Shown: positions 11,267 to 43,051 of the stretch, piece after piece
Numbering within the stretch: position 1 is the stretch's first letter
Layout: every line of letters begins with the position of its first letter
NCBI GenBank assembly: GCA_965279525.1
Contig: CBDIIB010000005.1
Location: forward strand, 363,998 to 427,997
Direction: 5' to 3'
DNA from: Tagaea sp.
GTDB lineage: Bacteria; Pseudomonadota; Alphaproteobacteria; CACIAM-22H2
Length of the DNA: 64,000 nucleotides
Program-made: the position numbers and the translations under genes
Notes under the pieces: model-generated
What the model was told of the DNA's origin: nothing
The model's database searches: none
What the model saw: only the letters and a program-made list of their open reading frames with translations

Positions 11267-11351
11267 GCCTTCCGGTTCGCGCGTCCGGCCCCCGGAGTTA
11301 CGGGCGATTCCCTTTGAATCTCCCCGGAAAATGCGGTGAATATCGGCCGGC

Positions 11352-24746: not shown

Positions 24747-25613
24747 CTACTGGAAGACGGCTTCCGCCGTCATCGCCTGCGCGCCGTCGGCGCGGCGGAC
24801 CCACAGCACGGCACCCGCGCGCGTCCAGACTTCCGTCGCGTCGCGCACCCACAGCGTCGCCGGATTTTCCGCAGGCTTGCCGCACAGCACGAAGGGTGCG
24901 GTGTCGACGACCGGCGCCTGAGCGCGGAAGGCGAAACGCTTCAAAGGCCGACCGGCCCGCTCGACGGCAAGATCCATCAGCATCGTCGCGAGCATCGGCC
25001 CGTGCACGACGAGGCCTTCGTAGCCTTCGACGTCGCGCGCGTAGGTGCGGTCGTAGTGGATGCGGTGGCCGTTGAACGTCAGCGCCGAATAGCGGAACAG
25101 CAGCGTGGGATCCGGCGTCACGTGGCGCGACCAGTCTTCTCCACCCGGCGCCTGCGGCGGCTTCGGAGCCGGGTGCGACGGATCAGGGTCGGCGCGATAG
25201 ACGATGTCGTGCTCTTCTTCGAGCCGCAGCGCGCCGTCGGCCGAGATCGCGTGGTGCACCGTGACGAACACGAGGGCGCCGGTCTTGCCGTGCTTCTCCT
25301 CGACCTTCGCGATGCGTGAGGCGCGCGTGGCGATGGCACCCACTGGCAGCGGCGAATGGTAGACGAGCCGCCCGCCCGCCCACATGCGGCGCGGCAGCGC
25401 CACCGGCGGCAGGAAGCCGCCGCGCTTCGGGTGCCCGTCGCGCCCCAGATCGCGCGCCTTGGCGACCGCGTTGAAAAACGCCCAGTGCCAGCCGGGCGGA
25501 ACGTGATCGCCCGGCGGATCGCGGTCGAACGTCGCGGCAAGGGCCGCGATACGTCCCGGCTCGATCGTCTCGCTCGCCGTCTCGGTGCGCCCGATCCAGT
25601 CGGCGAGGTTCAT
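24747..25613 (-). CDS. MaoC-family double-hotdog (R)-specific enoyl-CoA hydratase/dehydratase (mesaconyl/itaconyl-CoA hydratase-like)
   Basis: 288 aa, N-terminal MNLADWIGRTE start with ATGA overlap of the CoA-transferase stop. Hotdog-fold signature in C-half. Confidence 0.65.
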   Translation of the reverse strand: MNLADWIGRTETASETIEPGRIAALAATFDRDPPGDHVPPGWHWAFFNAVAKARDLGRDGHPKRGGFLPPVALPRRMWAGGRLVYHSPLPVGAIATRASRIAKVEEKHGKTGALVFVTVHHAISADGALRLEEEHDIVYRADPDPSHPAPKPPQAPGGEDWSRHVTPDPTLLFRYSALTFNGHRIHYDRTYARDVEGYEGLVVHGPMLATMLMDLAVERAGRPLKRFAFRAQAPVVDTAPFVLCGKPAENPATLWVRDATEVWTRAGAVLWVRRADGAQAMTAEAVFQ

Positions 25614-26725
25614 GCGAATTCCTTGCGGATCGCGGCCGAATGCTGGCCGACCGTCGGCACGGGTCCGAGCGAGGGTGCGCGTTCGCCATCGATGACCGGC
25701 GGGGGTGCGGGAATCGCGACCTTGCCGCCCGGTGTGTCGATCTCGACGCGACGCAGCTGCGGATGCCTGGAAAAGCGCGCAACGTCGTTGAGCTCGCCGA
25801 ACGCGATGTTGCCCTTCTTGAGTCGGGCCACCAGTTCCGCGCGCGGGTGCTTGCCGAAGAACGCGGCGATATAGGCGTCGAGAGCGGCGCGGTTCTTCAC
25901 GCGCAGGACGTTGGTGGCGAACTCGGGCTTGCCCGGTTCGCCCAGCACATGCGTGCAGAAGCCCGCCCATTCGCGGTCGTTCTGCACCGAGATGACGATC
26001 GGGATGCCGTCGGCACTGGCGAACGCGCTGTAGGGGGCGACCGACGGATGGGCGAGGCCCACGCGCGCCGGCGCCTTGCCGGCATAGTCGAAATGCAGCA
26101 GCGGGACGGCCATCCAATCGGCCATGCCGTCGAACAGCGAGACCTTGATCGAACGGCCCTCACCGGTGCGTCCGCGCGCGATCAGCGCTTCGAGGATCGC
26201 CTGGTGCGCGTACATGCCCGCCGCGATGTCGCACACCGACACGCCCACGCGCCCCGGCGCATCCGGCCCGCCGGTGATCGAGGCGAGGCCCGTCTCGGCC
26301 TGCACCAGCATGTCGTAACTCTTCATCGCCGCGTAGGGACCTTCGTCGCCATAGCCCGAGATGTCGACGACGATGAGGCGCGGATATTTCGCGCGCAGAT
26401 CTTCTGTGCCGAAGCCCGCACGCGCGGCCGCCCCCGGCATCAGGTTCTGCACGAACACGTCGGCCTTCGCGAGGATACGGTGCATCAGGGTCGCGTCCGC
26501 CGGCTCCTTGATGTCGGCGACGAGCGACTGCTTGCCGCGGTTGAGCCAGACGAAATAGCTCGCCTGCCCCTTGGCCACATCGTCGTAGCCGCGCGCGAAA
26601 TCGCCCTCGGGCCGCTCGATCTTGACGACGCGCGCACCGGCATCGGCCAGCCGCGACGTGCAATAGGGGGCCGCGACCGCCTGTTCGAGGGAGAGGACGA
26701 GGATGCCGTCGAGTGCGCCCGTCAT
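25610..26725 (-). CDS. Family III CoA-transferase (CaiB/BaiF/Frc family)
   Basis: MTGALDGILVLSLEQAVAAPYCTSRLADAGARVVKIERPEGD N-terminus typical of the family. The ORF-track start is an upstream TTG. Confidence 0.8.
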   Translation of the reverse strand: MTGALDGILVLSLEQAVAAPYCTSRLADAGARVVKIERPEGDFARGYDDVAKGQASYFVWLNRGKQSLVADIKEPADATLMHRILAKADVFVQNLMPGAAARAGFGTEDLRAKYPRLIVVDISGYGDEGPYAAMKSYDMLVQAETGLASITGGPDAPGRVGVSVCDIAAGMYAHQAILEALIARGRTGEGRSIKVSLFDGMADWMAVPLLHFDYAGKAPARVGLAHPSVAPYSAFASADGIPIVISVQNDREWAGFCTHVLGEPGKPEFATNVLRVKNRAALDAYIAAFFGKHPRAELVARLKKGNIAFGELNDVARFSRHPQLRRVEIDTPGGKVAIPAPPPVIDGERAPSLGPVPTVGQHSAAIRKEFA

Positions 26726-26726
26726 G

Positions 26727-27869
26727 TCAGTACGACCTCGGAAGATCCAGAACGTGCTCGGCAAGATAGGCGAGGATCAGGTTCGTCGAGATCGGGGCGA
26801 CCTGATAGAGCCTGGTCTCGCGGAACTTGCGCTCGACGTCGTATTCCTCGGCGAAGCCGAAGCCGCCATGCGTCTGCAGGCACGCCTCGGCGGCCTTCCA
26901 CGACGCGTCGGCCGCCAGCATCTTGGCCATGTTGGCCTGCGGCCCGCACGCCTCGCCCGCCTCGTAGAGATCGAGCGCTTCGCGCACCATCAAGGCTGCC
27001 GCCTGCCCTTCGGCATAGGCGCGCGCGATCGGGAACTGGATGCCCTGGTTCTGGCCGATGGGCCGGCCGAACACGACGCGCTCGCGCGCGTAGTTGCTGG
27101 CCTTCTCGACGAACCAGTTGAGGTCGCCCACGCATTCGGCCGCGATCAGGATGCGCTCGGCATTCATGCCGTCGAGGATGTAGCGGAAGCCCCGCCCCTC
27201 CTCGCCGATGCGGTTTTCCGCCGGCACTTCCAGATCGTCGAAGAACACTTCGGTCGTCGCGTGGTTCATCATCGCGCGCAGCGGCTTGATCGTCAGGCCC
27301 TTGGCCTCGCGCATGTCGACGACGAACACCGAGAGGCCGTCGGTCTTCTTCGCGGTCTTGTCCTTGGGCGTCGTGCGCGCGAGCAGCAGCATCAGGTCGG
27401 AATGTTCGGCGCGGCTCGTCCACACCTTCTGGCCGTTGATCACATATTTGTCGCCGCGACGTTCGGCGGTCGTGCGGATCGCGGTCGTGTCGGTACCGGC
27501 ACTTGGCTCGGTCACGCCGAAGGCCTGCAGGCGCAGATCGCCCGCCGCGATGCCGGGCAGGAAACGCTGTTTCTGTTCGGGGCTGCCGTGGCGCAGGATC
27601 GTGCCCATCGTGTACATCTGCGCGTGGCACGCCCCGCCATTGCAGCCCGACGCGTGGATCTCCTCGAGGATCGCGGCGGCCGCCGAAAGCCCCAGCCCCG
27701 ACCCGCCATATTCCTCGGGGATCAGCACGGCAAGCATGCCCGCCTTCGTCAGTTCGTCGACGAACGCCTTGGGATAGGCGCGTTCGCGGTCCAGTGCGCG
27801 CCAGTATTCGCCCGGATATTTCGCGCAGAGCGCCTTGACCGATTCGCGGATCTCCGGGTGGCTCGCCAT
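26727..27869 (-). CDS. Acyl-CoA dehydrogenase family protein
   Basis: 380 aa from MASHPEIRESV with GVTEPSAGTD and C-terminal ACAD signature. Upstream ORF start is an alternative-codon extension. Confidence 0.8.
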   Translation of the reverse strand: MASHPEIRESVKALCAKYPGEYWRALDRERAYPKAFVDELTKAGMLAVLIPEEYGGSGLGLSAAAAILEEIHASGCNGGACHAQMYTMGTILRHGSPEQKQRFLPGIAAGDLRLQAFGVTEPSAGTDTTAIRTTAERRGDKYVINGQKVWTSRAEHSDLMLLLARTTPKDKTAKKTDGLSVFVVDMREAKGLTIKPLRAMMNHATTEVFFDDLEVPAENRIGEEGRGFRYILDGMNAERILIAAECVGDLNWFVEKASNYARERVVFGRPIGQNQGIQFPIARAYAEGQAAALMVREALDLYEAGEACGPQANMAKMLAADASWKAAEACLQTHGGFGFAEEYDVERKFRETRLYQVAPISTNLILAYLAEHVLDLPRSY

Positions 27870-27873
27870 GGCG

Positions 27874-28875
27874 CTAGCCCGCCCGTTTGCGCAGGTCGGC
27901 AAGCAGGTCGGCCGGCACCTTGATGCCGCCGGCGGCGGACGCGGCCCGCAGCTTCAGCCGCCGCTCGCCGGGCAGGCGCGTGCCGGATTGCGCGAGGATG
28001 GCGCCCAGCAGCACCTCCAGCCGCGTGGCGAACGCAGGGCCGGCGAAACGCTGGGGATCGATCAGCAGGAAGAACTGGCCCACGCGCGGCGGCCCGCCCT
28101 TGGCGTCGAAGAACGAGCTGGCTTCGTAGCCGAAATTCGATGCGGTGAGTGCGGCCGCGAGGATCTCGACCATCAGCACCAGCGCCGCCCCCTTGGCGTC
28201 GCCCAGCGGGAGCATCGTGCCGGCCATCGCCTTCTTGGGATCGGTCGTCGGATTGCCGTCGGGATCGAGCGCCCAGCCTTCGGGGATCGTCTCGCCTTTC
28301 TGGGCGGCCACCATGATCTTGCCGCGCGCGACCTTCGACAGCGACAGGTCGACGACGAGTGGCGCCTTGCCCGCGCGCGGAGCCGCGAACGCGATGGGGT
28401 TGGTGCCGAACAGTGCCTTCGACCCGCCCCACGGGGCGATGGCCGACGGCGAGTTGCCGAACAGGAGGGCGACCAGCCCTGCCTTCGCCGCCGCCTCGAC
28501 GTGATAGCCGGCCGCCCCGAAATGATGCGAGTTGCCGATCCCGACGCCCACGACACCGGCCGTCTTCGCCATGTCGATGCCCTTCGCGATGCCGGCGGCG
28601 ATGGCCGGATAGGCGAACCCGTCCTTCGCGTCGACGAACAGCGCGCCGGGCGCGTTGACGCGCAGCTCGGGCACGGCCGTACCCGCGACCTTGCCGGCCT
28701 TGGCCTGGTCGGCATAGGCGGCGACACGGCTCAGACCGTGGCTGGCGAGCCCGTCGGCTTCCGCCGCGACGAGCGCGTCGGCGACGGCGCCCGCGTTGGC
28801 GGGTACCGTACCGGCGGCGACAAGTGCCTTCAGCACCAGCGCATGCGCGTCGGCCAGCGAAATGGTCTCGCTCAT
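27874..28875 (-). CDS. Ldh2-family oxidoreductase (malate/L-lactate/sulfolactate dehydrogenase family, ComC-like)
   Basis: 333 aa from MSETISLADAHALVLKAL. Ldh_2 core (GNSHHFGAAGYH). ATGA overlap with the upstream 2-HADH stop. Confidence 0.75.
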   Translation of the reverse strand: MSETISLADAHALVLKALVAAGTVPANAGAVADALVAAEADGLASHGLSRVAAYADQAKAGKVAGTAVPELRVNAPGALFVDAKDGFAYPAIAAGIAKGIDMAKTAGVVGVGIGNSHHFGAAGYHVEAAAKAGLVALLFGNSPSAIAPWGGSKALFGTNPIAFAAPRAGKAPLVVDLSLSKVARGKIMVAAQKGETIPEGWALDPDGNPTTDPKKAMAGTMLPLGDAKGAALVLMVEILAAALTASNFGYEASSFFDAKGGPPRVGQFFLLIDPQRFAGPAFATRLEVLLGAILAQSGTRLPGERRLKLRAASAAGGIKVPADLLADLRKRAG

Positions 28876-29822
28876 TTCGACCCCTTGATGCCGAGATTCG
28901 CCAACGCACTGCGCACGTTGGCGACCGTCACGCTGGAAACGCGCACGTTGCCCTCGGCGGTCACGCCGGCGATGTGCGGCGTCAGCCACAGGCGCGGAGC
29001 ACCTTCGAGCACCGAGCCCGCCTTCAGCGGCTCCTTGTCGAAGACGTCGATCGCGGCGCCGCCGAGCGTGCCGGCCTTCAGGGCGGCGGCCAGAGCGGCC
29101 TCGTCGATGATGCCGCCGCGCGACGTGTTGATCAGGATGGCGGACTTCTTCATCTTCGCGAGGCGCGCCGCGTCGATCAGGTTGCGCGTCTGCGGCGTCA
29201 AGGGCACATGCAGCGAGATCACGTCGGACGTGGCGCAAAGCTCCTCGACCGTGGCGATGCGTGTCACGCCGTACTGCTTCCACGCCGGATCGTCCGGCTT
29301 CAGCATCGGGTCGTAGGCCGCAAGATCCATTTCCAGCGCCTTCGCGCGCGTCGCGACCGCGCGCGCGATCCCGCCGAAGCCCACGAAGCCGAGGCGCTTG
29401 CCCATCGCCTCGCCCAGCATCAGGTCGTTGCGCGGCCACTTGCCGGCGAGCACGTCGGCATTGGCCTTCCAAACGTCGCGAAGGCACACGAGCGTTGCCG
29501 CGATCACGTATTCGGCGACCGAAACGGTGTTGGCCCCCGTCGCCGGGAAGACCTGGATGCCGCGCTTCGCGCATTCGTCCATGTCGATATTGTCGAGCCC
29601 GACGCCCAGCCGGCCGATCACCTTCAGGTTCTTCATCGCGGCAAGCACGGGGCCGCGGACCTGCGTGAGGTTGCGCACGATGATCGCCGGGCTTTCCGCG
29701 GCAAGCTTCGCGAGTTCCTCGGGCTTCGACACGAGGGTGCGGTCGTAATGGACCTTGTAATCCTTCGCCAGATCGTCGACCGCCCACTGGTCGACGAATT
29801 CGCTCACGACGATGTCGTACAT
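28872..29822 (-). CDS. D-isomer-specific 2-hydroxyacid dehydrogenase (NAD-binding)
   Basis: 316 aa from MYDIVVSEF. Rossmann GFVGFGGIARAV. Catalytic RGGIIDE and PH motif. Confidence 0.8.
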   Translation of the reverse strand: MYDIVVSEFVDQWAVDDLAKDYKVHYDRTLVSKPEELAKLAAESPAIIVRNLTQVRGPVLAAMKNLKVIGRLGVGLDNIDMDECAKRGIQVFPATGANTVSVAEYVIAATLVCLRDVWKANADVLAGKWPRNDLMLGEAMGKRLGFVGFGGIARAVATRAKALEMDLAAYDPMLKPDDPAWKQYGVTRIATVEELCATSDVISLHVPLTPQTRNLIDAARLAKMKKSAILINTSRGGIIDEAALAAALKAGTLGGAAIDVFDKEPLKAGSVLEGAPRLWLTPHIAGVTAEGNVRVSSVTVANVRSALANLGIKGSK

Positions 29823-29823
29823 T

Positions 29824-31437
29824 CTACATCTGCTCCATGTATTCGGCCGGATCGACGATTGCGTCGATGACCGTGAATTTGCGCGACGAAACGGCCGCCG
29901 CAAAGGCTTTTTCGAAGTCGGCCAGCGTTTCGACGCGCACGCCGACGGCCCCGCACGCCTGCCCGATCTGGTCGAAGCGCGGTCCCTTGAAGTCGACGGC
30001 ACGCGGTGCCATCTGCATCTTGGCTTGCTTGAGCTTGATCAGCGACAGCGCCCCGTCATTGAGCACGACGACGACGATCGGCAGGCCCAGTTCGGCCGCC
30101 AGCGGCAGCTCGCCCGCCGTCATCAGCATGCAGCCGTCGCCGACCAGCGCCACGACGGGCGCATCCGGACAGGCAAGCTGCGCGCCGATGGCCGCCGGCA
30201 CCGCATAGCCCATGCAGCACAGGCCGTTGGATTGCAGCAGCTGGCCGGACGACCGGCACTTGACCGAATGGTTGGCAAGGATGCGATGCGCGCCGACATC
30301 GACCGTCAGTTTCCAGTCGGGTGCCACGCGGTCCGACACGGCCTTGAACAGGCCGGCGGGCGAAATGCCCTTGGCCGGAGCGCGCGGCCGCACGATGTGC
30401 GCGACCGCATCGCGGCAGGCCTTGAGTGTCGCCGCGGGCCATGCACCCGCCCCTGGCTCGCCCGACGACGAAAGCTGGCCGAGCATCGCCGGCAGGTCGC
30501 CGTAGCATTCGGTGCCCAGCGGGAAAATGCGGTGGTTGAGCGGCCCCCAGTCGAGCGTGAGCACCGCGCGATCCTGCGGCCACGCATCAAGCCACGCATC
30601 GCGCAGCTCGATCGGATCGAAGCCGACGCACACGATCCGGTCCGCTTCGCGCACGATCTTCATGTTTTCGCCGTCCACGACCGGCGACAGGCCGACCGCG
30701 CCCAGGCACAGCGGATGGGCTTCGTCGATCACGCCCTTGGCCTTGTAGGTGGCGAAGAACGGCAGGCGCCAGGATTCGGCGAAACGGCGCAGCATGTCGG
30801 GCACGCCTTCATGCACCGCCCCGCGCCCGACCAGCAGCAGCGGGCGCTTGGCGCGCGCGATCGCGAGGCGAGCCGCAACCGCCGCATCGCCGGCAAGTGC
30901 GGTGCGCGCGACCGCGACCGGGCGGGCATCGAAATTCTCGGTCGATTCCGCACGGCCCAGATCGGCCGGGATATTCAGCATCACCGGGCCGGCCGGATAG
31001 GCCATCGCGATGTCGAGCGCGCGCGCCATCTGCTGGGCGGGGCGTGCCGCGTTGAGCGTGGCGGCATATTTGGTGACGGGTGTGGCCAGCGCCACATGGT
31101 CGAAGACCTGGTGGTTGTAGATCTGCGCGTTGGATGTGGCCATCTCGCCGGTCAGCACCGCAAGCGGCGAGCGCTCCATCAGTGCACCCGCGATGCCCGC
31201 CGTCGCGTTGGCGATGCCGGGGCCGAGTGCGGGGATCAGCACCTGCGGCCTGCCGGTGATCTGGCAAACCGCATCGGCCATGAACGCGGCAGCGGGTTCG
31301 GATTTCGCCAGCACGAAGCGGATGCCGGCTTCCTCGCACGCGCGCACGGTTTCCAGCACGTCGTTGCCGGGGATGCCGAACGCGAACGTGGCCCCCCAGT
31401 TGCGCAAGGTGGCGGCAAGCTTGTCGGCGACTTTCAA
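29824..31437 (-). CDS. Thiamine-diphosphate-dependent enzyme (acetolactate synthase large subunit / 2-ketoacid decarboxylase-lyase-like)
   Basis: 537 aa. TTG start with AGGAG SD gives MKVADKLAATLRNWGATFAFGIPG. C-terminal TPP-binding GDGCMLM...LNDGALS motif. Confidence 0.75.
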   Translation of the reverse strand: MKVADKLAATLRNWGATFAFGIPGNDVLETVRACEEAGIRFVLAKSEPAAAFMADAVCQITGRPQVLIPALGPGIANATAGIAGALMERSPLAVLTGEMATSNAQIYNHQVFDHVALATPVTKYAATLNAARPAQQMARALDIAMAYPAGPVMLNIPADLGRAESTENFDARPVAVARTALAGDAAVAARLAIARAKRPLLLVGRGAVHEGVPDMLRRFAESWRLPFFATYKAKGVIDEAHPLCLGAVGLSPVVDGENMKIVREADRIVCVGFDPIELRDAWLDAWPQDRAVLTLDWGPLNHRIFPLGTECYGDLPAMLGQLSSSGEPGAGAWPAATLKACRDAVAHIVRPRAPAKGISPAGLFKAVSDRVAPDWKLTVDVGAHRILANHSVKCRSSGQLLQSNGLCCMGYAVPAAIGAQLACPDAPVVALVGDGCMLMTAGELPLAAELGLPIVVVVLNDGALSLIKLKQAKMQMAPRAVDFKGPRFDQIGQACGAVGVRVETLADFEKAFAAAVSSRKFTVIDAIVDPAEYMEQM

Positions 31438-31447
31438 GGCAAGGCTC

Positions 31448-33777: not shown

Positions 33778-33781
33778 GGCG

Positions 33782-35784: not shown

Positions 35785-35786
35785 GG

Positions 35787-36671: not shown

Positions 36672-37479
36672 GGGCGTCCGCCTTCTCCTGCTCGATGCGT
36701 TCGGCGAACAGCATGTCGTGGATGCGCCGCTGCAGGGCCTGGAACTCGACCCCGCCCTGTGCCGTGTGGTCGAACTGGTGGCAGTTGAGCTCGGCCTTCA
36801 CGCGGCCGGGATGCGGCGACAGCACGAGGATGCGGCTGCCCACAACGATGGCTTCCTCGATCGAGTGCGTGACGAACAGCACGGTGAAGCGCACGTCGTC
36901 CCACAGCTCGAGGAGTTCTTCCTGCATCTTGCGCCGCGTCAGCGCATCGAGGGCCGCGTAGGGTTCGTCCATCAGCAGGATGTCGGGTTCCATCGCCATC
37001 GCGCGCGCGATGGCCACGCGCTGCTTCATGCCGCCCGACAGCATGTGCGGGTAGACGTCGATGAACTTGGTCAGGTTCACCTTCTCGATGAAGTGGCGCG
37101 CACGCGCCGCCGCCTCGGTCTTGTTCCACTTGCCCGCGCACAGCATCGGGAACATGACGTTCTCGAGCACGGTCTTCCACGGCAGCAGCTGGTCGAATTC
37201 CTGGAAGACCATCATGCGGTCAGGACCCGGCCGGTCGATCGTGCGCCCGTTGAGCGCCATGGTGCCTTCGACCGGCGTCATGAAGCCGGCCACGCCCTTC
37301 AGCAGCGTCGACTTCCCGCAGCCCGATGGCCCCAGCAGCACGAACCGGTCGCCGCGCTGCACCTCGAAACTGACGCGGTACGTCGCGGTGACCAGATGTT
37401 CGGCCGTCTTGTACTGGAGCGTCACCCCGTCGACCTTCAGGATCGGCGGGGTGACGCCGGAGGCGTCTGCCATCGTCAA
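36664..37479 (-). CDS. ABC transporter ATP-binding protein (NitT/TauT family)
   Basis: Walker A GPSGCGKST, signature LSGGMKQRVAIARA, Walker B ILLMDEP. 271 aa. Confidence 0.85.
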   Translation of the reverse strand: MTMADASGVTPPILKVDGVTLQYKTAEHLVTATYRVSFEVQRGDRFVLLGPSGCGKSTLLKGVAGFMTPVEGTMALNGRTIDRPGPDRMMVFQEFDQLLPWKTVLENVMFPMLCAGKWNKTEAAARARHFIEKVNLTKFIDVYPHMLSGGMKQRVAIARAMAMEPDILLMDEPYAALDALTRRKMQEELLELWDDVRFTVLFVTHSIEEAIVVGSRILVLSPHPGRVKAELNCHQFDHTAQGGVEFQALQRRIHDMLFAERIEQEKADAHG

Positions 37480-37489
37480 GCCGCTCCGC

Positions 37490-38509
37490 CTAGGATCCCT
37501 GCACGCCGTGCAGGCCGGGGAAGAACATCTCCTTCCAGTCGGCCGGCTTTTCCTTGACCGTGCCGGTGCGCTGCATGAACTCGGCGTACTTCATCGTGTT
37601 CTTCGGCACGACGGTGAACTCGTGCTGCGGATCGTTGAGGAGCGACATCACGAATTCCTTCGGCGGCGCTCCCTTCTCGACGCGCATGTAGATGTCGGCC
37701 GCGCGGTTCTTGTCGTTCGTGATGATGGCCTGCGCCTCGACGAGCGCATCCTGGAACGCCTTGTAGACGCGCGGGTTCTGCGTGCGGACCTTGTCGGTCG
37801 TCCAGACGAAGTTGAACGAGCACGGGCCGCCCAGCACCTCGTAGTTCGACAGCACGCGCTTCACCTTGGCGTCCTGGAGCTGCAGGTTCTGGAAGGGCGG
37901 CGAGCCGAAATGCGCCGTGATCTCGCTCTTGCCCGACATCATCGCGTTCATCGCGTCGGGGTGCGACATCGAGACGGTGATGTTGTCGAGCCTGTCGTGC
38001 TTGCCGGCACCGAAGGCCTTCTCGCAGGCCATCTGGAGCGTGATGGCCTGGATGGAGACGCGCACGGCCGGCAGGCCGATGCGGTCCTTGTCGGTGAAGT
38101 CGGCGATGGTCTTGACGGCGGGATTGACGGTGTTGAGGTAGAGCGGAAGCGAATTGAGCGAGGCCACGCCCTTGACGTTGAGCGAGCCCTTGGTGCGCGC
38201 CCACAGCACGATCATCGGCCCCACGCCGCCACCGGCGAATTCGAGATTGCCCGAGATCAGCGCGTCGTTGATGGGGGCACCGCCCGCGAACTGGAGCCAG
38301 TTCGTCTTGACGTTGGGAAGGCCCGCGGCAGCCGCGTGCTTCTCGATCAGCTTCAGGTCTTCCATGATCATCAGCGGCAGGTAGGAGATGCCGAACTGCT
38401 TGGCGATGCGCACTTCGCCGATCTCCTGCGCGTGCGCGATCCCGGGGGCGGCGAGCACGGCGGCGGCGCCGGCGACGAAGGCGCGGCGGGTCGGACGGAT
38501 ATCGGACAT
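37490..38509 (-). CDS. ABC transporter substrate-binding protein, NitT/TauT (SsuA/TauA-like aliphatic sulfonate/nitrate) family, Tat signal
   Basis: 339 aa from MSDIRPTRRAFVAGAAAVLAAPGIAHAQ. Periplasmic SsuA/TauA-like fold. Confidence 0.75.
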   Translation of the reverse strand: MSDIRPTRRAFVAGAAAVLAAPGIAHAQEIGEVRIAKQFGISYLPLMIMEDLKLIEKHAAAAGLPNVKTNWLQFAGGAPINDALISGNLEFAGGGVGPMIVLWARTKGSLNVKGVASLNSLPLYLNTVNPAVKTIADFTDKDRIGLPAVRVSIQAITLQMACEKAFGAGKHDRLDNITVSMSHPDAMNAMMSGKSEITAHFGSPPFQNLQLQDAKVKRVLSNYEVLGGPCSFNFVWTTDKVRTQNPRVYKAFQDALVEAQAIITNDKNRAADIYMRVEKGAPPKEFVMSLLNDPQHEFTVVPKNTMKYAEFMQRTGTVKEKPADWKEMFFPGLHGVQGS

Positions 38510-38588
38510 TCGGGTTTCCTCCCATTCTGTTGCGGCGGCGAAGTTCGCGGACGGTTCTGCCCTTGTCGAACAAGATTTTCTAACACGG

Positions 38589-39317
38589 TCAGGCAACGAG
38601 AACGACTCCCGAAGCCAGCAGCAATCCCAAGACGATACGCCGGAACGTCGCGTCGTCGACGCGCGCATAGAGCCGGAGGCCGATCCACACGCCCAGCGCC
38701 ACGGCCGGCAGGCACCACAGGAAATCCGAAACCGCCTGCGGGCCGATCCCGCCGTCGAAATAAAGATAGACGAGCGCCACGGCCTGCATGACGAAGATGT
38801 AAGGCTGGTAGACGCCGCGCTGCTCGTTTTTCGACCAGCCGCGCAGGCCGGTCCACGGCGTGGGGATCGCCCCCGACAGGCCGCCGAGCCCGCCCAGCAC
38901 CCCGCCGACGAAGCCGACCGCCCCGTCGAGCGGTGCCCCGCCGAAACGGATCGGCCGCGGCACCCCGCGCGCCAGCATGTAGATGGCATAGACGACGAGG
39001 AAGACGCCGATCGCGCGCTTCAGCGGCTCGGGCGACACGCTCTGCAGCAGCAGCACGCCGAGCGGGATGCCGATCACGCCACCGATCAGGAACGGGGCGA
39101 GCCGACGCCAGTCGATCGCGTCGCGCACGCCGAGAATCGAGAAGGTCTGCGCCAGCAGGCTCGCCGCCAGCACCAGGGGGGTGGCATCAACCGGCAGGCG
39201 CAGATGCAGATAGACCGCCGACGCGATCAGCGCGAAGGCGAACCCCGCCAGCCCCGACGCGATGGCCGCCACGAAAGACGCGAGCATCAGCCAGACTTCG
39301 CTCGGCACTTCGTTCAT
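38589..39317 (-). CDS. TauE/SafE family sulfite exporter (DUF81)
   Basis: 242 aa, 7-8 TM segments with Gly-rich repeats (GGVIGIPLGVLLL / GGVLGGLGGLSGAIP). Start overlaps the SdhC-like stop. Confidence 0.75.
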   Translation of the reverse strand: MNEVPSEVWLMLASFVAAIASGLAGFAFALIASAVYLHLRLPVDATPLVLAASLLAQTFSILGVRDAIDWRRLAPFLIGGVIGIPLGVLLLQSVSPEPLKRAIGVFLVVYAIYMLARGVPRPIRFGGAPLDGAVGFVGGVLGGLGGLSGAIPTPWTGLRGWSKNEQRGVYQPYIFVMQAVALVYLYFDGGIGPQAVSDFLWCLPAVALGVWIGLRLYARVDDATFRRIVLGLLLASGVVLVA

Positions 39318-39676
39318 GCCGCCATCACGTTGAACGCGAACAGCAACCCCGCCGCGATCGCGAAACCGGCACTGGCGGCGACGGCCGTCTTCTGCCGGTC
39401 GCTCCACGGCAGGAACTCGACCGCCAGCAGACGCACGCCGCCGGCCATGTGCGCGGCGAGCAGCACGACGAGACCGGTCTCGGCGAACTTGACCAATGCG
39501 TTGTCGGTCCAGCGCAGCATGCCGTCCAGTGCGGCCTCGCCGCCGATGGCCGTACCCAGCGCCCAGAAATGCAGCGGCACGAAAAGCGTCAGCGCCAGCC
39601 CGGACAACCGGTGCACGGCAAACGCCCACCACGCGGGGTGCTTGCGGTGCCGAAAAGAGGGGGGCGGCCGGTTCAT
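39314..39676 (-). CDS. Succinate dehydrogenase / fumarate reductase cytochrome b subunit-like membrane anchor (SdhC-like)
   Basis: 120 aa, 3 TM, His-containing HRLSGLAL motif. Confidence 0.6.
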   Translation of the reverse strand: MNRPPPSFRHRKHPAWWAFAVHRLSGLALTLFVPLHFWALGTAIGGEAALDGMLRWTDNALVKFAETGLVVLLAAHMAGGVRLLAVEFLPWSDRQKTAVAASAGFAIAAGLLFAFNVMAA

Positions 39677-40017
39677 GCGAACAGGCCGGCGACCGCGCGC
39701 CAGCCGAACCAGACGAGGAATGCCGCGAACGTGGCGGTCGCCAGATCAAGCGCCGGGCCGCGCCAGCCGAACGTCTCGCGCAGGATGGCGCGCAGGCCGA
39801 CGGGGGCATGGACCGCGACCGCGAGAACGAACAGGCCGTAGAACAACGCCAGGCCGAACGAACCGCGCGTGCGCGACAGGATCTCGGCGGCCGTCAGCCC
39901 GCCGCGCACCGCATAGAGGATCGTGGCCAGATGCACGAGCACGCACACGGCGAGCACGGCGGCACTGGCGCGTTGCGCCCCCCACAGCAGCGTTTCGGCG
40001 CGCGCGCGAAATCTCAT
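39673..40017 (-). CDS. Succinate dehydrogenase hydrophobic membrane anchor-like subunit (SdhD-like)
   Basis: 114 aa from MRFRARAETLLWGAQRASAAVLAVCVLVHL, 3 TM, overlaps neighbours by 4 nt. Confidence 0.55.
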   Translation of the reverse strand: MRFRARAETLLWGAQRASAAVLAVCVLVHLATILYAVRGGLTAAEILSRTRGSFGLALFYGLFVLAVAVHAPVGLRAILRETFGWRGPALDLATATFAAFLVWFGWRAVAGLFA

Positions 40018-40727
40018 GCCCCGCCCTTCCATGCCGCGCGCAGCGTGGCGCGCTTCAGCCCCGCGATCGACGCGGTGGGGTTGAGCGATTTGGGGCAGTG
40101 CTCGCGGCACGACTGGTGCGAATGGCAGGCATGGCAGCCCGCGTCGCCGGCGACCGCGTCGAGACGCTCGGCGTTGCCGGCATCGCGCACGTCGTTGACC
40201 AGCGTCCACGCGCGGTTGAGGGCGGCGGGCCCGAGATACTCGGCGTTCCACGCCACGAGATCGCAGGCCGAATAGCACACCGCACAGCCGATGCACTCGA
40301 TGCCCGCGTCGGCGGCTTTTCGTTCGGCACTTGCCGGCTCGACCACCGCGAAATCCGCACCGGCGTCGGCCGAGGGCACGAACCTTCCGCCGGCCTTCGC
40401 CCATTTGTCGAAGAACGGCGCCATGTCGGCGGCGAGATCCTTGATGCGCGGCAGGTTGCGCAGCGGCTCGACCGTCAGCGGGCCGCCTTCCAGACGCGAC
40501 ACGTGCGTGCGGCAGGTCCAGCGAGGCTTGCCGTTTACCGTCATCGCGCACGAGCCGCACATGCCCACGCGGCACGCGAATCGGTACGAGAGCGTCGGGT
40601 CGAGCTTGCGCTGGATATATGTGACCACGTCGAGCACGGTCTGGCTCGCGCGGCGCGGAACGGAAAAGGTCTCGAACCTTCCGTCCGCGCCGCCGCGCCA
40701 GATCCGCGCGTCGATCGTGTCGGCCAC
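40014..40727 (-). CDS. Succinate dehydrogenase / fumarate reductase iron-sulfur subunit-like (SdhB/FrdB-like)
   Basis: 237 aa. 2Fe-2S CRVGMCGSCAM. 4Fe-4S CIGCAVCYSAC and CHACHSHQSCREHCP. Confidence 0.8.
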   Translation of the reverse strand: MADTIDARIWRGGADGRFETFSVPRRASQTVLDVVTYIQRKLDPTLSYRFACRVGMCGSCAMTVNGKPRWTCRTHVSRLEGGPLTVEPLRNLPRIKDLAADMAPFFDKWAKAGGRFVPSADAGADFAVVEPASAERKAADAGIECIGCAVCYSACDLVAWNAEYLGPAALNRAWTLVNDVRDAGNAERLDAVAGDAGCHACHSHQSCREHCPKSLNPTASIAGLKRATLRAAWKGGA

Positions 40728-40734
40728 GAAGGGC

Positions 40735-41943
40735 CTAGGCGCTCTGGTAGAGCTTCGTCATCACGAATTCGCGATGCCCGAGGGCCTCGGCGCAGGTGTA
40801 GCGGCCGTTGCACACGCGGATCATCACGTCGATCAGACGGTCGCCCGCCTCATCGAGATCCATCTCGCGGCGCAGGATGCCGGAGACGTCGAGATCGATA
40901 TGCTCGGGCATCTCGCGCGCGGTCTTCGGGTTCGCCGTGAGCTTGATGACCGGCTCGATCGGGTTGCCGATGACGTTGCCCTGCCCCGTCGGGAACAGGT
41001 GCACGACGAAACCGGCGGCCGCCTGCAGGGTCACGCATTCGGCCGCGGCCGACGACGTGTCCATGAAGTAGAGACCTGCCCCCTTCTTGGGCATCTCGGC
41101 GGGGGCGAGCACGTCCACGTACTTCGTCTTGTGGCCGATCTTCTGGAAATTGCCGAAGGCCTTTTCCTCGATCGTCGTCAGGCCGCCCGCGATGTTGCCC
41201 TTGGTCGGCTGGGATTCCGACAGGTCGCTCGTCTTGAAGCGGTTGATCATGTCCTGGTAGGCGTTGAAGATCGTCATGAACTTGTCGGCGGTCTTCTTGT
41301 CGACCGCGCGCTTGACCATCTCCTTCTCGGCCCCGGTCAGCTCCGAGGTCTCGCCAAAGCACGTGGTGGCACCCAGCGGATCGACCTTGTCGATGAGGTT
41401 GCCGACCGTCGGGCACGAGGCGAGGCCCGACGTGGTGTCGGACTCGCCGCACTTGGTCGAGACCCACAGCTCCTCGATCGTGCACTGCTCGCGCTGCTTC
41501 TCGGTCGCCCACATGACGAACTGCTGCGCCACGCGGCTGGCGGCCTCGATCGTGCGCAGGTCGCCGTTGCCTTCGATGGCGAAGCCCTGCACGGGCTTGC
41601 CGGTCTTGGCGATGCCTTCGACCACGCGGCCCGTCCAGCCCGGCTCGATGCCGATGACGACGACGGCCGCGACGTTGGCGTTGCAGCCGGTGCCGATCAG
41701 CGTGCGGAAGTGGAGTGCGAGATCCTCGCCGAACTGCAGGCGCCCGTAGGCGTGCGGCAGCGCCATCGTGCCCTTGATGTTGTTGGCGACGGCTTCGGCC
41801 GCCGCGTTCGACAGGTCGTCGAGCGGCAGGATGATGACGTGGTTGCGGATGCCGACACGCCCGTTTTCGCGGCGATAGCCCATGAAGGGCAGCTTGCCGG
41901 TGTTCTTCGAGCGCTTCTTGATGATCGCGGGGGCCTTGGCCAT
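40735..41943 (-). CDS. UxaA-family dehydratase large subunit (altronate hydrolase C-terminal domain. SuyB-like (2R)-sulfolactate sulfo-lyase beta).
   Basis: 402 aa, UxaA C-terminal catalytic domain only. Paired with a separate SAF-domain small subunit upstream, as in SuyAB. Confidence 0.65.
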
Positions 41944-41956
41944 GTCGATCTCTCCC

Positions 41957-42241
41957 TTACCAGCGCTTGGTTTTCATGTTGTGGATATGGACGTGGTCGC
42001 CCTTCTTGGTATCCGCGACGACCTTGCCGATGTCGTGCCCGTACTTGATCACGGTGTCGCCCTTCTTGAGGTCGACCATCGCGATCTTGTGGCCGAGCGG
42101 AATGGCCTTGAGCGCCTTCACGCGCACGGTCCCGTCGCCTTCCATGAGCCAGCCTTCGAGGGCGGCACCCGGCTTGACGGTTTCGACGACGATGACACCG
42201 ACGGTGTCCTTCTTGTCGTGGACGATGAATTGGGTCGCCAT
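41957..42241 (-). CDS. SAF-domain small subunit (UxaA N-terminal domain. SuyA-like sulfo-lyase alpha).
   Basis: 94 aa [30 protein letters not shown]... SAF/flagellar-FlgA-like fold immediately upstream of the UxaA large subunit. Confidence 0.65.
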
Positions 42242-42315
42242 TTCCCCCTCGCGGTTTTTATGGGTTGTCGGATGGTCGCGAACGCTACGCCCGGCTTGCG
42301 CGACCCGTCAACCGG

Positions 42316-42329
42316 GTCTTATATAAGAC
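42316..42329. promoter_or_regulatory. Perfect 14-bp palindrome GTCTTATATAAGAC (GntR-type operator consensus GT-N10-AC) 9 nt upstream of the gntR ATG
   Basis: Read directly. Lies in the 96-nt divergent intergenic region between the SuyA-like gene and the gntR gene. Confidence 0.7.
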
Positions 42330-42337
42330 TCGAGATC

Positions 42338-43051
42338 ATGGAAACGCGCCCGCTCTACCGCCAGATCAAGGAAGCGCTGATGCGCCGTCTCGTCGACGGG
42401 CGCTGGCGTGCGGGCGAGCTGATCCCGTCCGAGCATGCGCTCGCATCCGAGCTTGGCGTGAGCCAGGGCACGGTGCGCCGGTCGCTCGACGAGCTGGCCC
42501 GCGCCAACCTCGTCGTGCGCCGGCAGGGCAAGGGCACGTTCGTGGCCGAGCACACGCGCGAGCGCGCCCTGTTCCACTTCTTCCATCTGGTCGGCGACGA
42601 CGGCAAGCGGGCTTTGCCCGGCAGCCGCGTGCTGGCCGTCAAGGCGGGGCCGGCCTCGCGCGAGGAAGCGCGCCGGCTCGAACTTGCCGCCGGCGCGAAA
42701 GTGGTGCGGCTCCATCGCCTGCGCATGCTCGACGGGCGTGCCGCGATCGTCGAGCGCATCGTGCTGCCGGCCACCCTTTATGACGGGATCGAACGGCTCG
42801 ACCGCGCGGGCCTGCCCAACGAGCTCTACAAGCTCTACCAGGACCGCTACGGCGTGTCGGTCGCGCGCGCGGCCGAAAAACTGAAGGCCGCCCCGGCGGG
42901 GCCGGAAGATGCCGCACATCTGGGCCTGCGCAGCGGGGCGGCCGTGCTGGAGATCGACCGGATCGCCTACGCGCTCGACGGCAGGCCCTGCGAATGGCGG
43001 GTATCCCGCTGCGATACGGCCGCCCACCACTACGTTTCCGAAGTGGTCTAG
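42338..43051 (+). CDS. GntR-family transcriptional regulator (HutC/UTRA subfamily)
   Basis: 237 aa. Winged HTH (LIPSEHALASELGVSQGTVRRSLDELA) and UTRA effector domain. Transcribed divergently from the 19-gene operon. Confidence 0.85.
   Translation: METRPLYRQIKEALMRRLVDGRWRAGELIPSEHALASELGVSQGTVRRSLDELARANLVVRRQGKGTFVAEHTRERALFHFFHLVGDDGKRALPGSRVLAVKAGPASREEARRLELAAGAKVVRLHRLRMLDGRAAIVERIVLPATLYDGIERLDRAGLPNELYKLYQDRYGVSVARAAEKLKAAPAGPEDAAHLGLRSGAAVLEIDRIAYALDGRPCEWRVSRCDTAAHHYVSEVV

Follow-up and report, generated by a model that had tools for sequence, protein, structure and literature searches.

What is degraded by the products of 19 consecutive genes on the minus strand of a Tagaea sp. contig (CBDIIB010000005.1), running from 42241 down to 24747 in the 64,000-nucleotide stretch that was analysed (the window)? 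The sequence-only reading of this DNA had proposed an undescribed catabolic system for a sulfonated C3 or C4 organic acid. Comparison with profile libraries, characterised proteins and related genomes leads us to give an even chance to a more specific reading, in which the operon would serve to break down a C3 sulfonate with release of sulfite, taking 3-sulfopropanoate through sulfoacrylate and (R)-sulfolactate to pyruvate and sulfite. The end point of the operon is the known sulfolactate module and the front end is new. The genes are numbered g1 to g19 in the direction of transcription.

The sulfolactate module and its putative control

The first two genes, g1 (42241–41957, 94 amino acids, aa) and g2 (41943–40735, 402 aa), lie side by side, 13 nt apart, and encode a SuyA-like small SAF subunit and a SuyB-like, UxaA-type large subunit, as in the (R)-sulfolactate sulfo-lyase SuyAB. 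No Pfam match was found for g1, as is also the case for published SuyA, and g1 gave a weak match to the N-terminus of GarD; in tblastn searches it was 52–54% identical to the suyA regions of Paracoccus and Cupriavidus pinatubonensis and 70% identical to those of Phreatobacter and Stellaceae. The large subunit, g2, carries the Pfam domains GD_AH_second and GD_AH_C and has thousands of close relatives, auto-named SuyB by JGI. Its identity to the SuyB proteins encoded in the hps-suy cluster of C. pinatubonensis and in the Paracoccus suyAB-suyZ locus is 68–69%, that to E. coli UxaA and GarD 28–30%, and a search of plasmids and chromids returned a tight group at 67–71% identity and nothing else above 38%. 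The gene order of the C. pinatubonensis reference locus is hpsN-hpsO-MFS-hpsP-SAF-UxaA, which we take to be the arrangement of the published dihydroxypropanesulfonate cluster. In the Paracoccus ferrooxidans reference locus a GntR gene is followed by SAF-UxaA-'sulfate exporter', the layout given for suyAB-suyZ of P. pantotrophus in a later paper (Rein 2005, as cited in PMC12421959), and a molybdopterin oxidoreductase and a cytochrome c encoded ∼8 kb downstream are a possible sulfite dehydrogenase.

A 2019 study found four cysteines to be conserved across the UxaA/GarD superfamily with the exception of SuyAB (PMC6336799). All four were intact in our alignment in E. coli UxaA, E. coli GarD and a roseobacter altronate dehydratase, whereas g2 and all SuyB-clade sequences aligned have Leu, Arg and a gap at the positions of UxaA C132, C166 and C199, retaining C264 alone. 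The placement with SuyB by pairwise identity, together with the loss of these cysteines, therefore favours the sulfonate reading in its main test. On this evidence g1 and g2 are true SuyAB orthologues with predicted sulfo-lyase activity, and the grouping of the SAF/UxaA pair with SuyAB made by the sequence-only reading is borne out.

A role as a sugar-acid dehydratase was also considered for the pair and was rejected for this window on account of the 68–69% identity to SuyB in two loci of published suyAB arrangement and of the cysteine pattern. It had arisen from pairs 83–85% identical in Acidobacteria (contigs L003–L005), whose neighbours encode GntR(FCD), GFO/IDH/MocA, creatininase-family, cupin, 2-hydroxyacid dehydrogenase, sodium:dicarboxylate symporter and FAA-hydrolase proteins, with no TauE. 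SuyB-type proteins are 83–85% identical across Acidobacteria, Chloroflexota, Eremiobacterota and Alphaproteobacteria, an unusually high value for a comparison across phyla and one that exceeds the identity of g2 to the proteobacterial SuyB references.

The dehydrogenases expected beside a sulfo-lyase are g15 (29822–28872, 316 aa), a D-2-hydroxyacid dehydrogenase, and g16 (28875–27874, 333 aa), of the Ldh_2 family, the two genes overlapping by 4 nt. The Pfam make-up of g15, PF00389 with PF02826, is that of SlcC (PMC12421959 Table S2), and g16 matches PF02615 at 342.6 bits, the family of ComC, so the earlier assignment to the SlcC and ComC families stands by domain content. A homologue of g15, 56–57% identical in tblastn, adjoins an Ldh2 gene in Paracoccus and Methylobacterium. 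The best NCBIfam match of g16 is to the sulfolactate dehydrogenase model NF040650, though at 209.5 bits it is well below the cutoff of 500, and its closest structure in the PDB is a piperideine-2-carboxylate reductase (230 bits; ComC of M. jannaschii, 147 bits). Being an SlcC/ComC-family pair encoded with suyAB, g15 and g16 are candidates for an SlcC-type (S)-sulfolactate and a ComC-type (R)-sulfolactate dehydrogenase.

Four genes concern transport. The product of g6 (39317–38589, 242 aa) matches Pfam TauE (PF01925) over its full length, residues 10–239, at 119.9 bits against a cutoff of 32.6, and is a TauE/SafE anion transporter, acting either in the export of sulfite or in the transport of a sulfonate; annotated TauE genes also accompany the cluster in Paracoccus, Methylobacterium, Pseudomonas and haloarchaea. 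An importer of the NitT/TauT type of ATP-binding cassette (ABC) systems follows, with a periplasmic binding protein (g7, 38509–37490, 339 aa), an ATPase (g8, 37473–36664, 269 aa) and a permease (g9, 36671–35787, 294 aa). The ATPase has the domain ABC_tran and is nearest in NCBIfam to taurine and nitrate ATPases, and the permease has BPD_transp_1 and is nearest to permeases of the SaoP/SsuC/TauC type, in both cases below cutoff. The assignment of the binding protein to the SsuA/TauA type was upheld in part: its sole NCBIfam match is the sulfonate family SsuA_fam, but at 59.7 bits this is weak and below cutoff, with NMT1_2 just below its cutoff and a single PDB match, 3E4R, at E = 0.0016.

Systems combining SuyAB, SlcC and ComC are known from Chromohalobacter salexigens, P. 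pantotrophus, C. pinatubonensis and P. wurundjeri. The operon has in common with them a GntR/UTRA regulator gene by suyA, the SAF and UxaA-type subunits, a TauE-type transporter and a D-2-hydroxyacid dehydrogenase side by side with an Ldh_2 dehydrogenase. What feeds the known clusters is sulfolactate, dihydroxypropanesulfonate, cysteate or a sulfosugar. Between suyAB and slcC/comC the operon has genes for a complex-II-like dehydrogenase and a fumarase-like hydratase, and no such insertion is described for the known clusters. The claim that four modules had been brought together in an undescribed way holds, within the open-access literature searched, for the combination of complex-II-like enzyme, fumarase-like hydratase and SuyAB, but GntR/UTRA, SuyAB, SlcC and ComC constitute a described sulfolactate pathway. 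Cleavage of the C–S bond at the level of a 2-keto acid, as first proposed, has to be dropped since SuyAB cuts at the 2-hydroxy acid stage.

The regulator gene is divergent from the operon. It had been placed at 41882–43051 but is corrected to 42338–43051 on the plus strand, encoding a GntR/HutC-type protein of 237 aa with the Pfam domain pair GntR and UTRA. The same pair is present in the regulator adjoining suyA in P. wurundjeri (PMC12421959 Table S1). Direct reading showed a perfect palindrome, GTCTTATATAAGAC, at 42316–42329, upstream of g1. Identical or nearly identical motifs precede suyA in loci L001, L100 and L102 and in Stellaceae (L072), Paracoccus (L087) and Methylobacterium oryzae (L088), the last with two copies and the Paracoccus copy being at a classical suyAB locus. 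Kept exactly or with one or two changes across distant Alphaproteobacteria, the palindrome looks like a candidate operator of the GntR/HutC-type sulfolactate regulator. Just downstream of it, at 42282–42311 on the minus strand, is a promoter-like element (TTGACG, 18 nt, TAGCGT), which was not called by a strict consensus scan; in L100 and L102 both its hexamers are conserved, as is the flanking GCGTAGCGTTCGCG. On the other side, 3' of the regulator gene, an open reading frame (ORF) of 377 aa at 43062–44195 (+) has a good coding signal and no Pfam match. An ORF of equal length occupies the same place by the GntR gene in L001, L100 and L102, and it may be co-transcribed with the regulator gene.

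Long ORFs occur on every strand because the window has 68% G+C, and the 19 genes were delimited by G+C content at third codon positions (0.84–0.93 in frame), start-site analysis and family matches. Clear Pfam families were obtained for 18 of the 19, the exception being g1, and the family assignments of the sequence-only reading all hold by Pfam and NCBIfam profile matches. The junctions, when read directly, showed seven overlaps of 4 nt, six of them ATGA (40014–17, 39673–76, 39314–17, 33166–69, 28872–75 and 25610–13) and one GTGA (34666–69), and one overlap of 8 nt between g8 and g9 (36664–71). The remaining intergenic gaps are of 1–16 nt except for the largest, 79 nt between the TauE gene g6 and the binding-protein gene g7. 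This agrees with the gaps of 80 nt or less and the eight or more start/stop overlaps claimed previously, and all six overlaps listed then are correct; the bound of the flavoprotein gene, g13, is moved from 33172 to 33169. Terminator-like sites were not enriched (4 against 9.8 expected from shuffled sequence) and none lies between minus-strand genes. From the intergenic spacing we infer that the 19 genes are co-transcribed. The operon is flanked downstream by a convergent small ORF and then cobS/cobT, and upstream by the divergent GntR gene and then the 377-aa ORF without a family match. Identical gene order and flanks were found in two related genomes, whose flavoprotein is 88–92% identical to g13.

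The complex-II-like enzyme and its hydratase partner

The proposed front end begins with g13 (33169–31448, 573 aa), a FrdA/SdhA-like flavoprotein of a distinct subfamily, and with three genes that lie close to suyAB, g3 (40727–40014, 237 aa), g4 (40017–39673, 114 aa) and g5 (39676–39314, 120 aa). The flavoprotein has the Pfam domains FAD_binding_2 and Succ_DH_flav_C, is ∼33–35% identical to canonical SdhA/FrdA and falls below every curated SdhA, FrdA and NadB cutoff, its best scores being 495 against 718 for TfrA and 436 against 567 for TIGR01812. Alignment with E. coli SdhA and FrdA showed that SdhA H242, R286, H354 and R399 are retained. The His that binds flavin adenine dinucleotide (FAD) covalently, SdhA His45 or FrdA His44, is a Cys in g13, within GKCGCTRMVQGG, and SdhA Thr254 is replaced by Glu, preceded by a six-residue insertion with a conserved basic residue. 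When GTDB species were scanned, each represented by one genome, the flavoprotein was found in at least 598. The pattern of retained residues, replacements and insertion recurs in 80 of 80 orthologues aligned (the best 80 of the at least 598, 70–76% identical to g13), as well as in the versions from Paracoccus, Pseudomonas, Pseudorhizobium, Methylobacterium and haloarchaea.

The SdhB-like iron-sulfur subunit g3 has the domains Fer2_3 and Fer4_17, scores 185.8 bits against a cutoff of 88 with TIGR00384 and contains the Cys motifs for the 2Fe-2S, 4Fe-4S and 3Fe-4S clusters. Both g4, an SdhD-like membrane anchor with a weak TIGR02968 match, and g5, an SdhC-like cytochrome b subunit (TIGR02970, 55.4 bits against a cutoff of 52.3), match Pfam Sdh_cyt. 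The operon thus shares with complex II the four subunits, the three Fe-S motifs, the two Sdh_cyt anchors and the catalytic His and Arg residues, and with the succinate-to-malate segment of metabolism an adjoining fumarase-type hydratase and a nearby Ldh_2 protein, of a family that includes malate dehydrogenases. Unlike complex II, its flavoprotein gene lies ∼6.8 kb from the genes of the other three subunits and has sulfonate and sulfite genes for neighbours. The claim of a full complex-II-like enzyme is therefore correct in that all subunit types are encoded, but the covalent-FAD His and one substrate-binding residue are gone. The tricarballylate dehydrogenase TcuA/TcuB is alike in having an FAD_binding_2 flavoprotein without covalent FAD, which dehydrogenates a CH2-CH unit resembling that of succinate in an unusual acid and hands the electrons on to an Fe-S partner in the membrane. 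It differs in that TcuB is another kind of partner, the substrate is a tricarboxylate, and neither SdhB/C/D nor a fumarase-type hydratase is known to be part of it.

In classical complex II, loss of the FAD-linking His abolishes the oxidation of succinate while the reduction of fumarate stays. The Cys found in its place in g13 may or may not restore a covalent link. Lack of the His is a feature of enzymes and mutants that act as fumarate reductases only, and this agrees with a reverse direction, in which the hydro-lyase would dehydrate sulfolactate to sulfoacrylate, the flavoprotein complex would be a quinol:sulfoacrylate reductase analogous to that of fumarate respiration, and 3-sulfopropanoate would leave through TauE. 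A TauE homologue has indeed been proposed as the 3-sulfopropanoate exporter of E. gilvus (PMC11489063), and a P. wurundjeri cluster described below is induced during growth that produces sulfolactate. However, most hosts of the flavoprotein are aerobic (Burkholderiales, Methylobacterium), a route without desulfonation has no need of the sulfite dehydrogenases and sulfate exporters encoded in the clusters, and SuyAB of the same operon would compete for the substrate, so that reductive use of the enzyme seems very improbable.

The family of the flavoprotein also includes L-aspartate oxidase, in which FAD is bound non-covalently. An L-aspartate oxidase-like dehydrogenase of cysteate, or of another amino-sulfonate, would yield sulfopyruvate and thence sulfolactate for SuyAB, and the new Glu of g13 could bind the amino group. 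An Ala in g13 presumably corresponds to Glu121 of NadB, which binds the amino group, and this we counted against such a role. The NadB scores of g13 are moreover below those of the SdhA/FrdA models, and a fumarase-type partner that is nearly universal would be left without a role. Even though cysteate to sulfopyruvate to sulfolactate to SuyAB is a known route in Paracoccus (PMC11193023), we regard this as the least probable of the readings considered.

The partner in the operon consists of g11 (34669–33782, 295 aa) and g12 (33777–33166, 203 aa), the alpha and beta subunits of a class-I fumarase/TtdAB-like hydro-lyase and a proposed sulfoacrylate hydratase. For g11 the Pfam family Fumerase scores 295 bits, and the fumarate hydratase model NF004885 is passed (309.5 against 276) but TtdA is not (181.9 against 365); g12 has the domain Fumerase_C and is below all equivalog cutoffs (136.9 against 264 and 124 against 269). 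Alignment to chains A and B of 7XKY showed the cluster-binding cysteines of g11 (CQDTG, CPP, IQC) and the substrate-binding R-D, TTSxR and GKGG motifs of g12 to be retained. Since the active site of g12 is unchanged from that of fumarase, the candidate substrates are not separable by this comparison.

The flavoprotein gene almost always adjoins that of a fumarase-type partner, which has one of three different origins. The first is the class-I type of g11/g12. The second, also class-I but 35% and 26% identical to g11 and g12, occurs in Paracoccus and Sulfitobacter and also on a Pseudomonas plasmid. The third, in two haloarchaea, is an ArgH-like lyase of the aspartase/fumarase superfamily. That non-orthologous enzymes of a single reaction class have taken the partner's place more than once argues for coupling of the two steps, with dehydrogenation by the flavoprotein being followed by an addition across the resulting double bond.

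Flavoprotein clusters in other genomes and the accessory genes

Which of the 19 genes belong together was examined in 40 flavoprotein loci of other species for which the full 10-kb flanks were available. Genes for SdhB/C/D-like subunits were present in 38–39 of the 40, the hydratase alpha and beta subunits in 39 and 37 (the beta gene adjoining that of the flavoprotein in 35), Ldh2 in 33, SuyB in 27, a 2-hydroxyacid dehydrogenase in 16, any homologue of the thiamine-diphosphate (TPP) enzyme g14 likewise in 16, and TauE in 11. The enzyme of the enolase type encoded by g10 has a homologue in one locus, acyl-CoA dehydrogenase (ACAD) and CoA-transferase homologues are found in two as weak matches of 23–45% identity, and the Ich-like g19 has none. 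Hence the 19 genes are not one conserved system, and about 14 of them are part of a widely conserved theme. The best 80 orthologues of the flavoprotein come mostly from Burkholderiales, with others from Methylobacterium, Chelatococcus, Xanthobacter and Stellaceae, and SuyB within the Burkholderiales clusters is up to 95% identical to that of C. pinatubonensis.

Genes for handling sulfite recur beside the flavoprotein clusters (SorA, YeiH/sulfate exporters, TauE and sulfite oxidase), which favours a route that releases it. In Methylobacterium oryzae SorA, at 685 bits against a cutoff of 600, and a sulfate exporter are encoded beside the cluster. The Paracoccus order is SdhBDC-flavoprotein-hydratase-YeiH sulfate exporter-NIPSNAP, with TauE in addition, and suyAB lies ∼21 kb away on the same plasmid. 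On the plasmid of Pseudomonas sp. MPC6 (L104) a sulfite oxidase and a cytochrome c are encoded by the cluster, and the hydratase is followed by a CoA-acylating (methyl)malonate-semialdehyde dehydrogenase. The Pseudorhizobium locus has a TRAP transporter, a homologue of succinate-semialdehyde dehydrogenase and an NAD(P)-binding protein that we interpret as a beta-hydroxyacid dehydrogenase; the set fits a conversion of 3-hydroxypropanesulfonate through 3-sulfopropanal to 3-sulfopropanoate. The semialdehyde-type genes of Pseudomonas and Pseudorhizobium are pointers to a C3 substrate.

A second type of cluster (L104, L094, L095, L105) has the order SdhBDC-flavoprotein-divergent class-I hydratase-(malonate/methylmalonate semialdehyde dehydrogenase)-NIPSNAP-YeiH. 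No match to the SuyB clade (60–80% identical) was found on the Pseudomonas, Pseudorhizobium and Sulfitobacter plasmids. This suggests that the second type of hydratase may add water at the sulfonated carbon, giving malonate semialdehyde and sulfite without SuyAB. On the plasmid of Sulfitobacter sp. THAF37 (L095) a gene at 25490–26662, named 3-sulfinopropanoyl-CoA desulfinase by NCBI, is 9 kb from the flavoprotein-hydratase cluster, and genes for a pyridoxal-phosphate aminotransferase and a TPP enzyme are on its other side; the neighbourhood hints at a wider C3 organosulfur island.

Several other loci depart from these arrangements. Plasmids of Haloarcula sp. GH36 (L103) and Natribaculum luteum (L106) encode SdhB and a member of the flavoprotein subfamily that is 47–49% identical, but a homologue of 'argininosuccinate lyase' substitutes for the Fe-S hydratase. 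TauE, a SAF/UxaA pair that is split and only ∼33% identical to g2, a TAXI-TRAP binding protein and, in Haloarcula, Ldh2 are encoded there too; membrane anchor genes are not annotated at the two loci. In a close relative, a metagenome-assembled genome of Phreatobacter sp. (GCA_016793595.1, L002), a two-subunit AcnX-type dehydratase follows the Sdh anchors, a Lactamase_B_3 gene separates those of the hydratase subunits, and there is no enolase-type gene. A variant of the 19-gene locus on a contig of ERZ25074273 (L101, 3x coverage) has fused gene calls, probably from frameshift errors, and differs at its 3' end, where the ACAD gene is followed by those for a PAS histidine kinase and for a sulfite-oxidase-like protein of eukaryote type, accompanied by a cytochrome c; the arrangement could be genuine or result from a chimeric assembly. 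Near the cluster in L022 and other Burkholderiales, a sulfatase-family gene was recognised by eye at 8 loci and one for a TauD/TfdA-family dioxygenase at 7.

The substrate might alternatively be the C4 compound sulfosuccinate. The complex-II-like enzyme would then form sulfofumarate and the hydratase 3-sulfomalate, which the Ldh2 or 2-hydroxyacid dehydrogenase would oxidise to 3-sulfo-oxaloacetate; loss of CO2 would lead to sulfopyruvate and on to (R)-sulfolactate, to be split by SuyAB. Addition of water at the sulfonated carbon could instead yield oxaloacetate and sulfite directly. Retention of the four dicarboxylate-binding residues of SdhA and of all the distal-carboxylate residues of the fumarase beta subunit agrees with a C4 substrate, as does the DctA-type C4-dicarboxylate carrier whose gene adjoins that of SuyAB in Methylobacterium, and both dehydrogenases would have an obligatory role, which fits the presence of Ldh2 in 33 of 40 loci. 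However, sulfosuccinate is best known as the head group of synthetic surfactants, yet at least 598 species, haloarchaea among them, carry the cluster. The (methyl)malonate-semialdehyde dehydrogenase and the succinate-semialdehyde-type genes of the related loci indicate C3 chemistry, and the SuyB proteins of the clusters are up to 95% identical to one that acts on sulfolactate derived from dihydroxypropanesulfonate. No genes for the degradation of sulfosuccinate were found in the literature searched, which was open-access. We consider sulfosuccinate a coherent but unlikely alternative.

The operon genes outside the conserved theme were compared with their nearest relatives. The enolase-superfamily enzyme g10 (35784–34666, 372 aa; MR_MLE_N and MR_MLE_C) has the full catalytic set of the mandelate-racemase subgroup (KxK 166–168, D196, E222, E249, D272, H299), and its best PDB match is 3DDM, deposited as 'putative mandelate racemase/muconate lactonizing enzyme'. 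A homologue 42% identical to it adjoins TauE and the hydratase on the Sulfitobacter plasmid. It is a lineage-specific addition, and a sulfolactate racemase or a second sulfo-lyase are reasonable guesses at its function. The TPP enzyme g14 (31437–29824, 537 aa) is of the acetolactate-synthase type, has three TPP domains and matches PRK08322 best (325 bits against a cutoff of 509). An identity as Xsc was rejected, the Xsc models giving partial and low scores. A close orthologue (∼64%) was seen in Stellaceae only; other loci encode a different TPP enzyme of the HACL/oxalyl-CoA-decarboxylase type, in Methylobacterium directly after the flavoprotein gene. Like g10, g14 is a lineage-specific addition, and it may act on sulfopyruvate.

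The last three genes encode an ACAD (g17, 27869–26727, 380 aa), an Ict-like family III CoA-transferase (g18, 26725–25610, 371 aa) and a double-hotdog, itaconyl-CoA hydratase-like protein (g19, 25613–24747, 288 aa; relatives are called at 272–273 aa). The families of a methylsuccinyl/itaconyl-type module at CoA level were thus named correctly, but by orthology the three are an already known itaconate/methylsuccinate Ich-ACAD-Ict module. In the Ich-ACAD-CoA-transferase clusters of Burkholderia and Variovorax the ACAD is 66–67% identical to g17 and the CoA-transferase 46–47% identical to g18, which matches CoA_transf_3 at 343.6 bits. For g19 the identity to Ich of itaconate clusters is 52–61%, with 61% for Burkholderia, and itaconyl-CoA hydratase 8KHG is matched at 254 bits (E = 1e-74). 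The ACAD of such clusters is a (RS)-methylsuccinyl-C4-CoA dehydrogenase (PMC12290011). A 3-sulfinopropanoyl-CoA desulfinase was tried for g17 and rejected, the score being 204.8 against a cutoff of 600 and the identity being to the itaconate-cluster ACAD instead. Compared with the itaconate clusters of Pseudomonas, Cupriavidus and Burkholderia (Ict, Ich, methylsuccinyl-CoA dehydrogenase, Ccl, MmgE/PrpD), the gene order differs and the trio is joined to the end of a sulfonate operon. No citramalyl-CoA lyase is encoded in the operon or adjoining it, and no MmgE/PrpD isomerase in the operon. The sole lyase-like match in the window, at 11379–12251, is 30% identical to a Burkholderia CoA-ester (citramalyl-CoA-type) lyase; it falls in an ORF at 11340–12296 (+), 12.5 kb from g19, which could supply the lyase absent from the operon.

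The trio could form a separate itaconate/methylsuccinate unit whose co-transcription is incidental, or it may serve a CoA-level route for 3-sulfopropanoate, in which sulfoacryloyl-CoA hydrated at C3 would release sulfite spontaneously. Its orthology also bears on a reading of the whole operon as a mosaic, in which SuyAB, SlcC, ComC and TauE would serve sulfolactate, the complex-II-like enzyme and hydratase would serve an unsulfonated dicarboxylate (methylsuccinate to mesaconate to citramalate, or a tartrate or malate analogue) with g17–g19 carrying out the same chemistry at CoA level, and the units would be co-located solely through shared regulation or carbon flow. Class-I fumarases include known mesaconases (PMC4682846), g11 scores above the fumarate hydratase cutoff, and 5 of the 40 loci have no homologue of SuyB, Ldh2, 2-hydroxyacid dehydrogenase or TauE within 10 kb. 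Across Paracoccus, Pseudorhizobium and Pseudomonas, however, genes for YeiH, TauE and sulfite oxidase accompany the flavoprotein-hydratase pair even with SuyAB absent from the replicon, and the haloarchaeal flavoprotein is again found with TauE, split SAF/UxaA and Ldh2. The itaconate-type module joins the pair in the lineage of the window only. A mosaic therefore appears quite unlikely.

A proposed route from 3-sulfopropanoate to pyruvate and sulfite

The compound 3-sulfopropanoate is succinate with one carboxylate replaced by a sulfonate, sulfoacrylate is the corresponding analogue of fumarate, and by the priority rules the isomer that matches L-malate in space is (2R)-sulfolactate, the substrate of SuyAB and ComC. 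In the preferred reading 3-sulfopropanoate would enter through the ABC importer g7–g9, and perhaps through TauE too. The membrane-bound complex-II-like enzyme (g13, g3, g4/g5) would oxidise it to 3-sulfoacrylate with transfer of electrons to quinone, and the Fe-S hydro-lyase g11/g12 would add water to give (2R)-3-sulfolactate, which SuyAB would cleave to pyruvate and sulfite, the sulfite being exported by TauE (g6). Interconversion of (S)- and (R)-sulfolactate via sulfopyruvate by g15 and g16 would take place alongside, so that external sulfolactate could enter as well, and the GntR/HutC regulator would control the operon from the conserved palindrome. What the sequences establish is how the genes are arranged, that SuyAB is orthologous, which families the proteins belong to and that the genes are found together in many genomes. 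From this we infer the substrates and reactions of uptake, dehydrogenation and hydration in the scheme, which way the electrons flow, and what g10, g14 and g17–g19 do.

A number of observations weigh against this scheme. With the distal-carboxylate residues intact and the fumarate hydratase cutoff passed by g11, sequence alone leaves fumarate or another dicarboxylate possible as the substrate of the hydratase. The flavoprotein lacks the covalent-FAD His, a loss that favours reduction over oxidation in classical complex II, and the Glu that has replaced the substrate-binding Thr would be unexpected so close to an anionic sulfonate. Ldh2, although unneeded in the simplest route from 3-sulfopropanoate, is commoner in the loci than SuyB (33 against 27 of 40), and TauE is within 10 kb in merely 11. 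The window contains no aminotransferase, sulfopropanal dehydrogenase or sulfite dehydrogenase.

Published work offers points of contact. Degradation of 3-sulfopropanoate was described as unreported in a 2024 paper save for a thesis on R. nubinhibens ISM (PMC11489063), which, as cited there, took homotaurine via 3-sulfopropanoate, sulfoacrylate and sulfolactate, and a January 2026 review considered the mechanism of 3-sulfopropanoate degradation in Bilophila unclear (PMC12890257). Homotaurine is reported to be degraded by P. pantotrophus NKNCYSA (PMC12421959). In P. wurundjeri growing on sulfofucose, a sulfosugar that yields sulfolactate, nine proteins of a cluster described as 'fumarate and tartrate metabolism' with TauE were more abundant, and the authors tied this induced cluster to the Krebs cycle (PMC12421959). 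From the description in that paper and the Paracoccus plasmid locus we think that the induced cluster is the same as the one discussed here; a search of the supplement for locus tags of the P. wurundjeri 'cluster 3' returned none. In the open-access literature searched there was no account of the combination of complex-II-like enzyme, fumarase-like hydratase and SuyAB, and no published genes for the breakdown of 3-sulfopropanoate.

Beyond this operon, we tentatively propose, with confidence a shade short of even, that the branch of complex II with Cys for the flavin-linking His is a 3-sulfopropanoate:quinone oxidoreductase and its neighbour a sulfoacrylate hydratase, together a 'sulfo' copy of the conversion of succinate to fumarate to malate. 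Recent work has shown that anaerobes make 3-sulfopropanoate from sulfoquinovose, a very abundant plant sulfosugar, and homotaurine is another source of the compound. If the proposal is true, these would be the missing genes for the mineralisation of 3-sulfopropanoate and, upstream of it, of homotaurine and 3-hydroxypropanesulfonate, and a gap in the organosulfur cycle would be closed. The hydratase step would have been recruited independently from three enzyme lineages in a pathway spread over at least 598 species from Burkholderiales to haloarchaea, and the signature GK[CS]GCTRMVQGG and LLAG...EEG[LI]RG would allow the pathway to be traced in genomes and metagenomes. The 'fumarate/tartrate' cluster induced in the published Paracoccus proteomics would be re-interpreted. 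A respiratory complex II would have been re-tooled for a sulfonate with a natural replacement of the covalent-FAD His, which would bear on the long-standing question of why the covalent link to FAD is needed.

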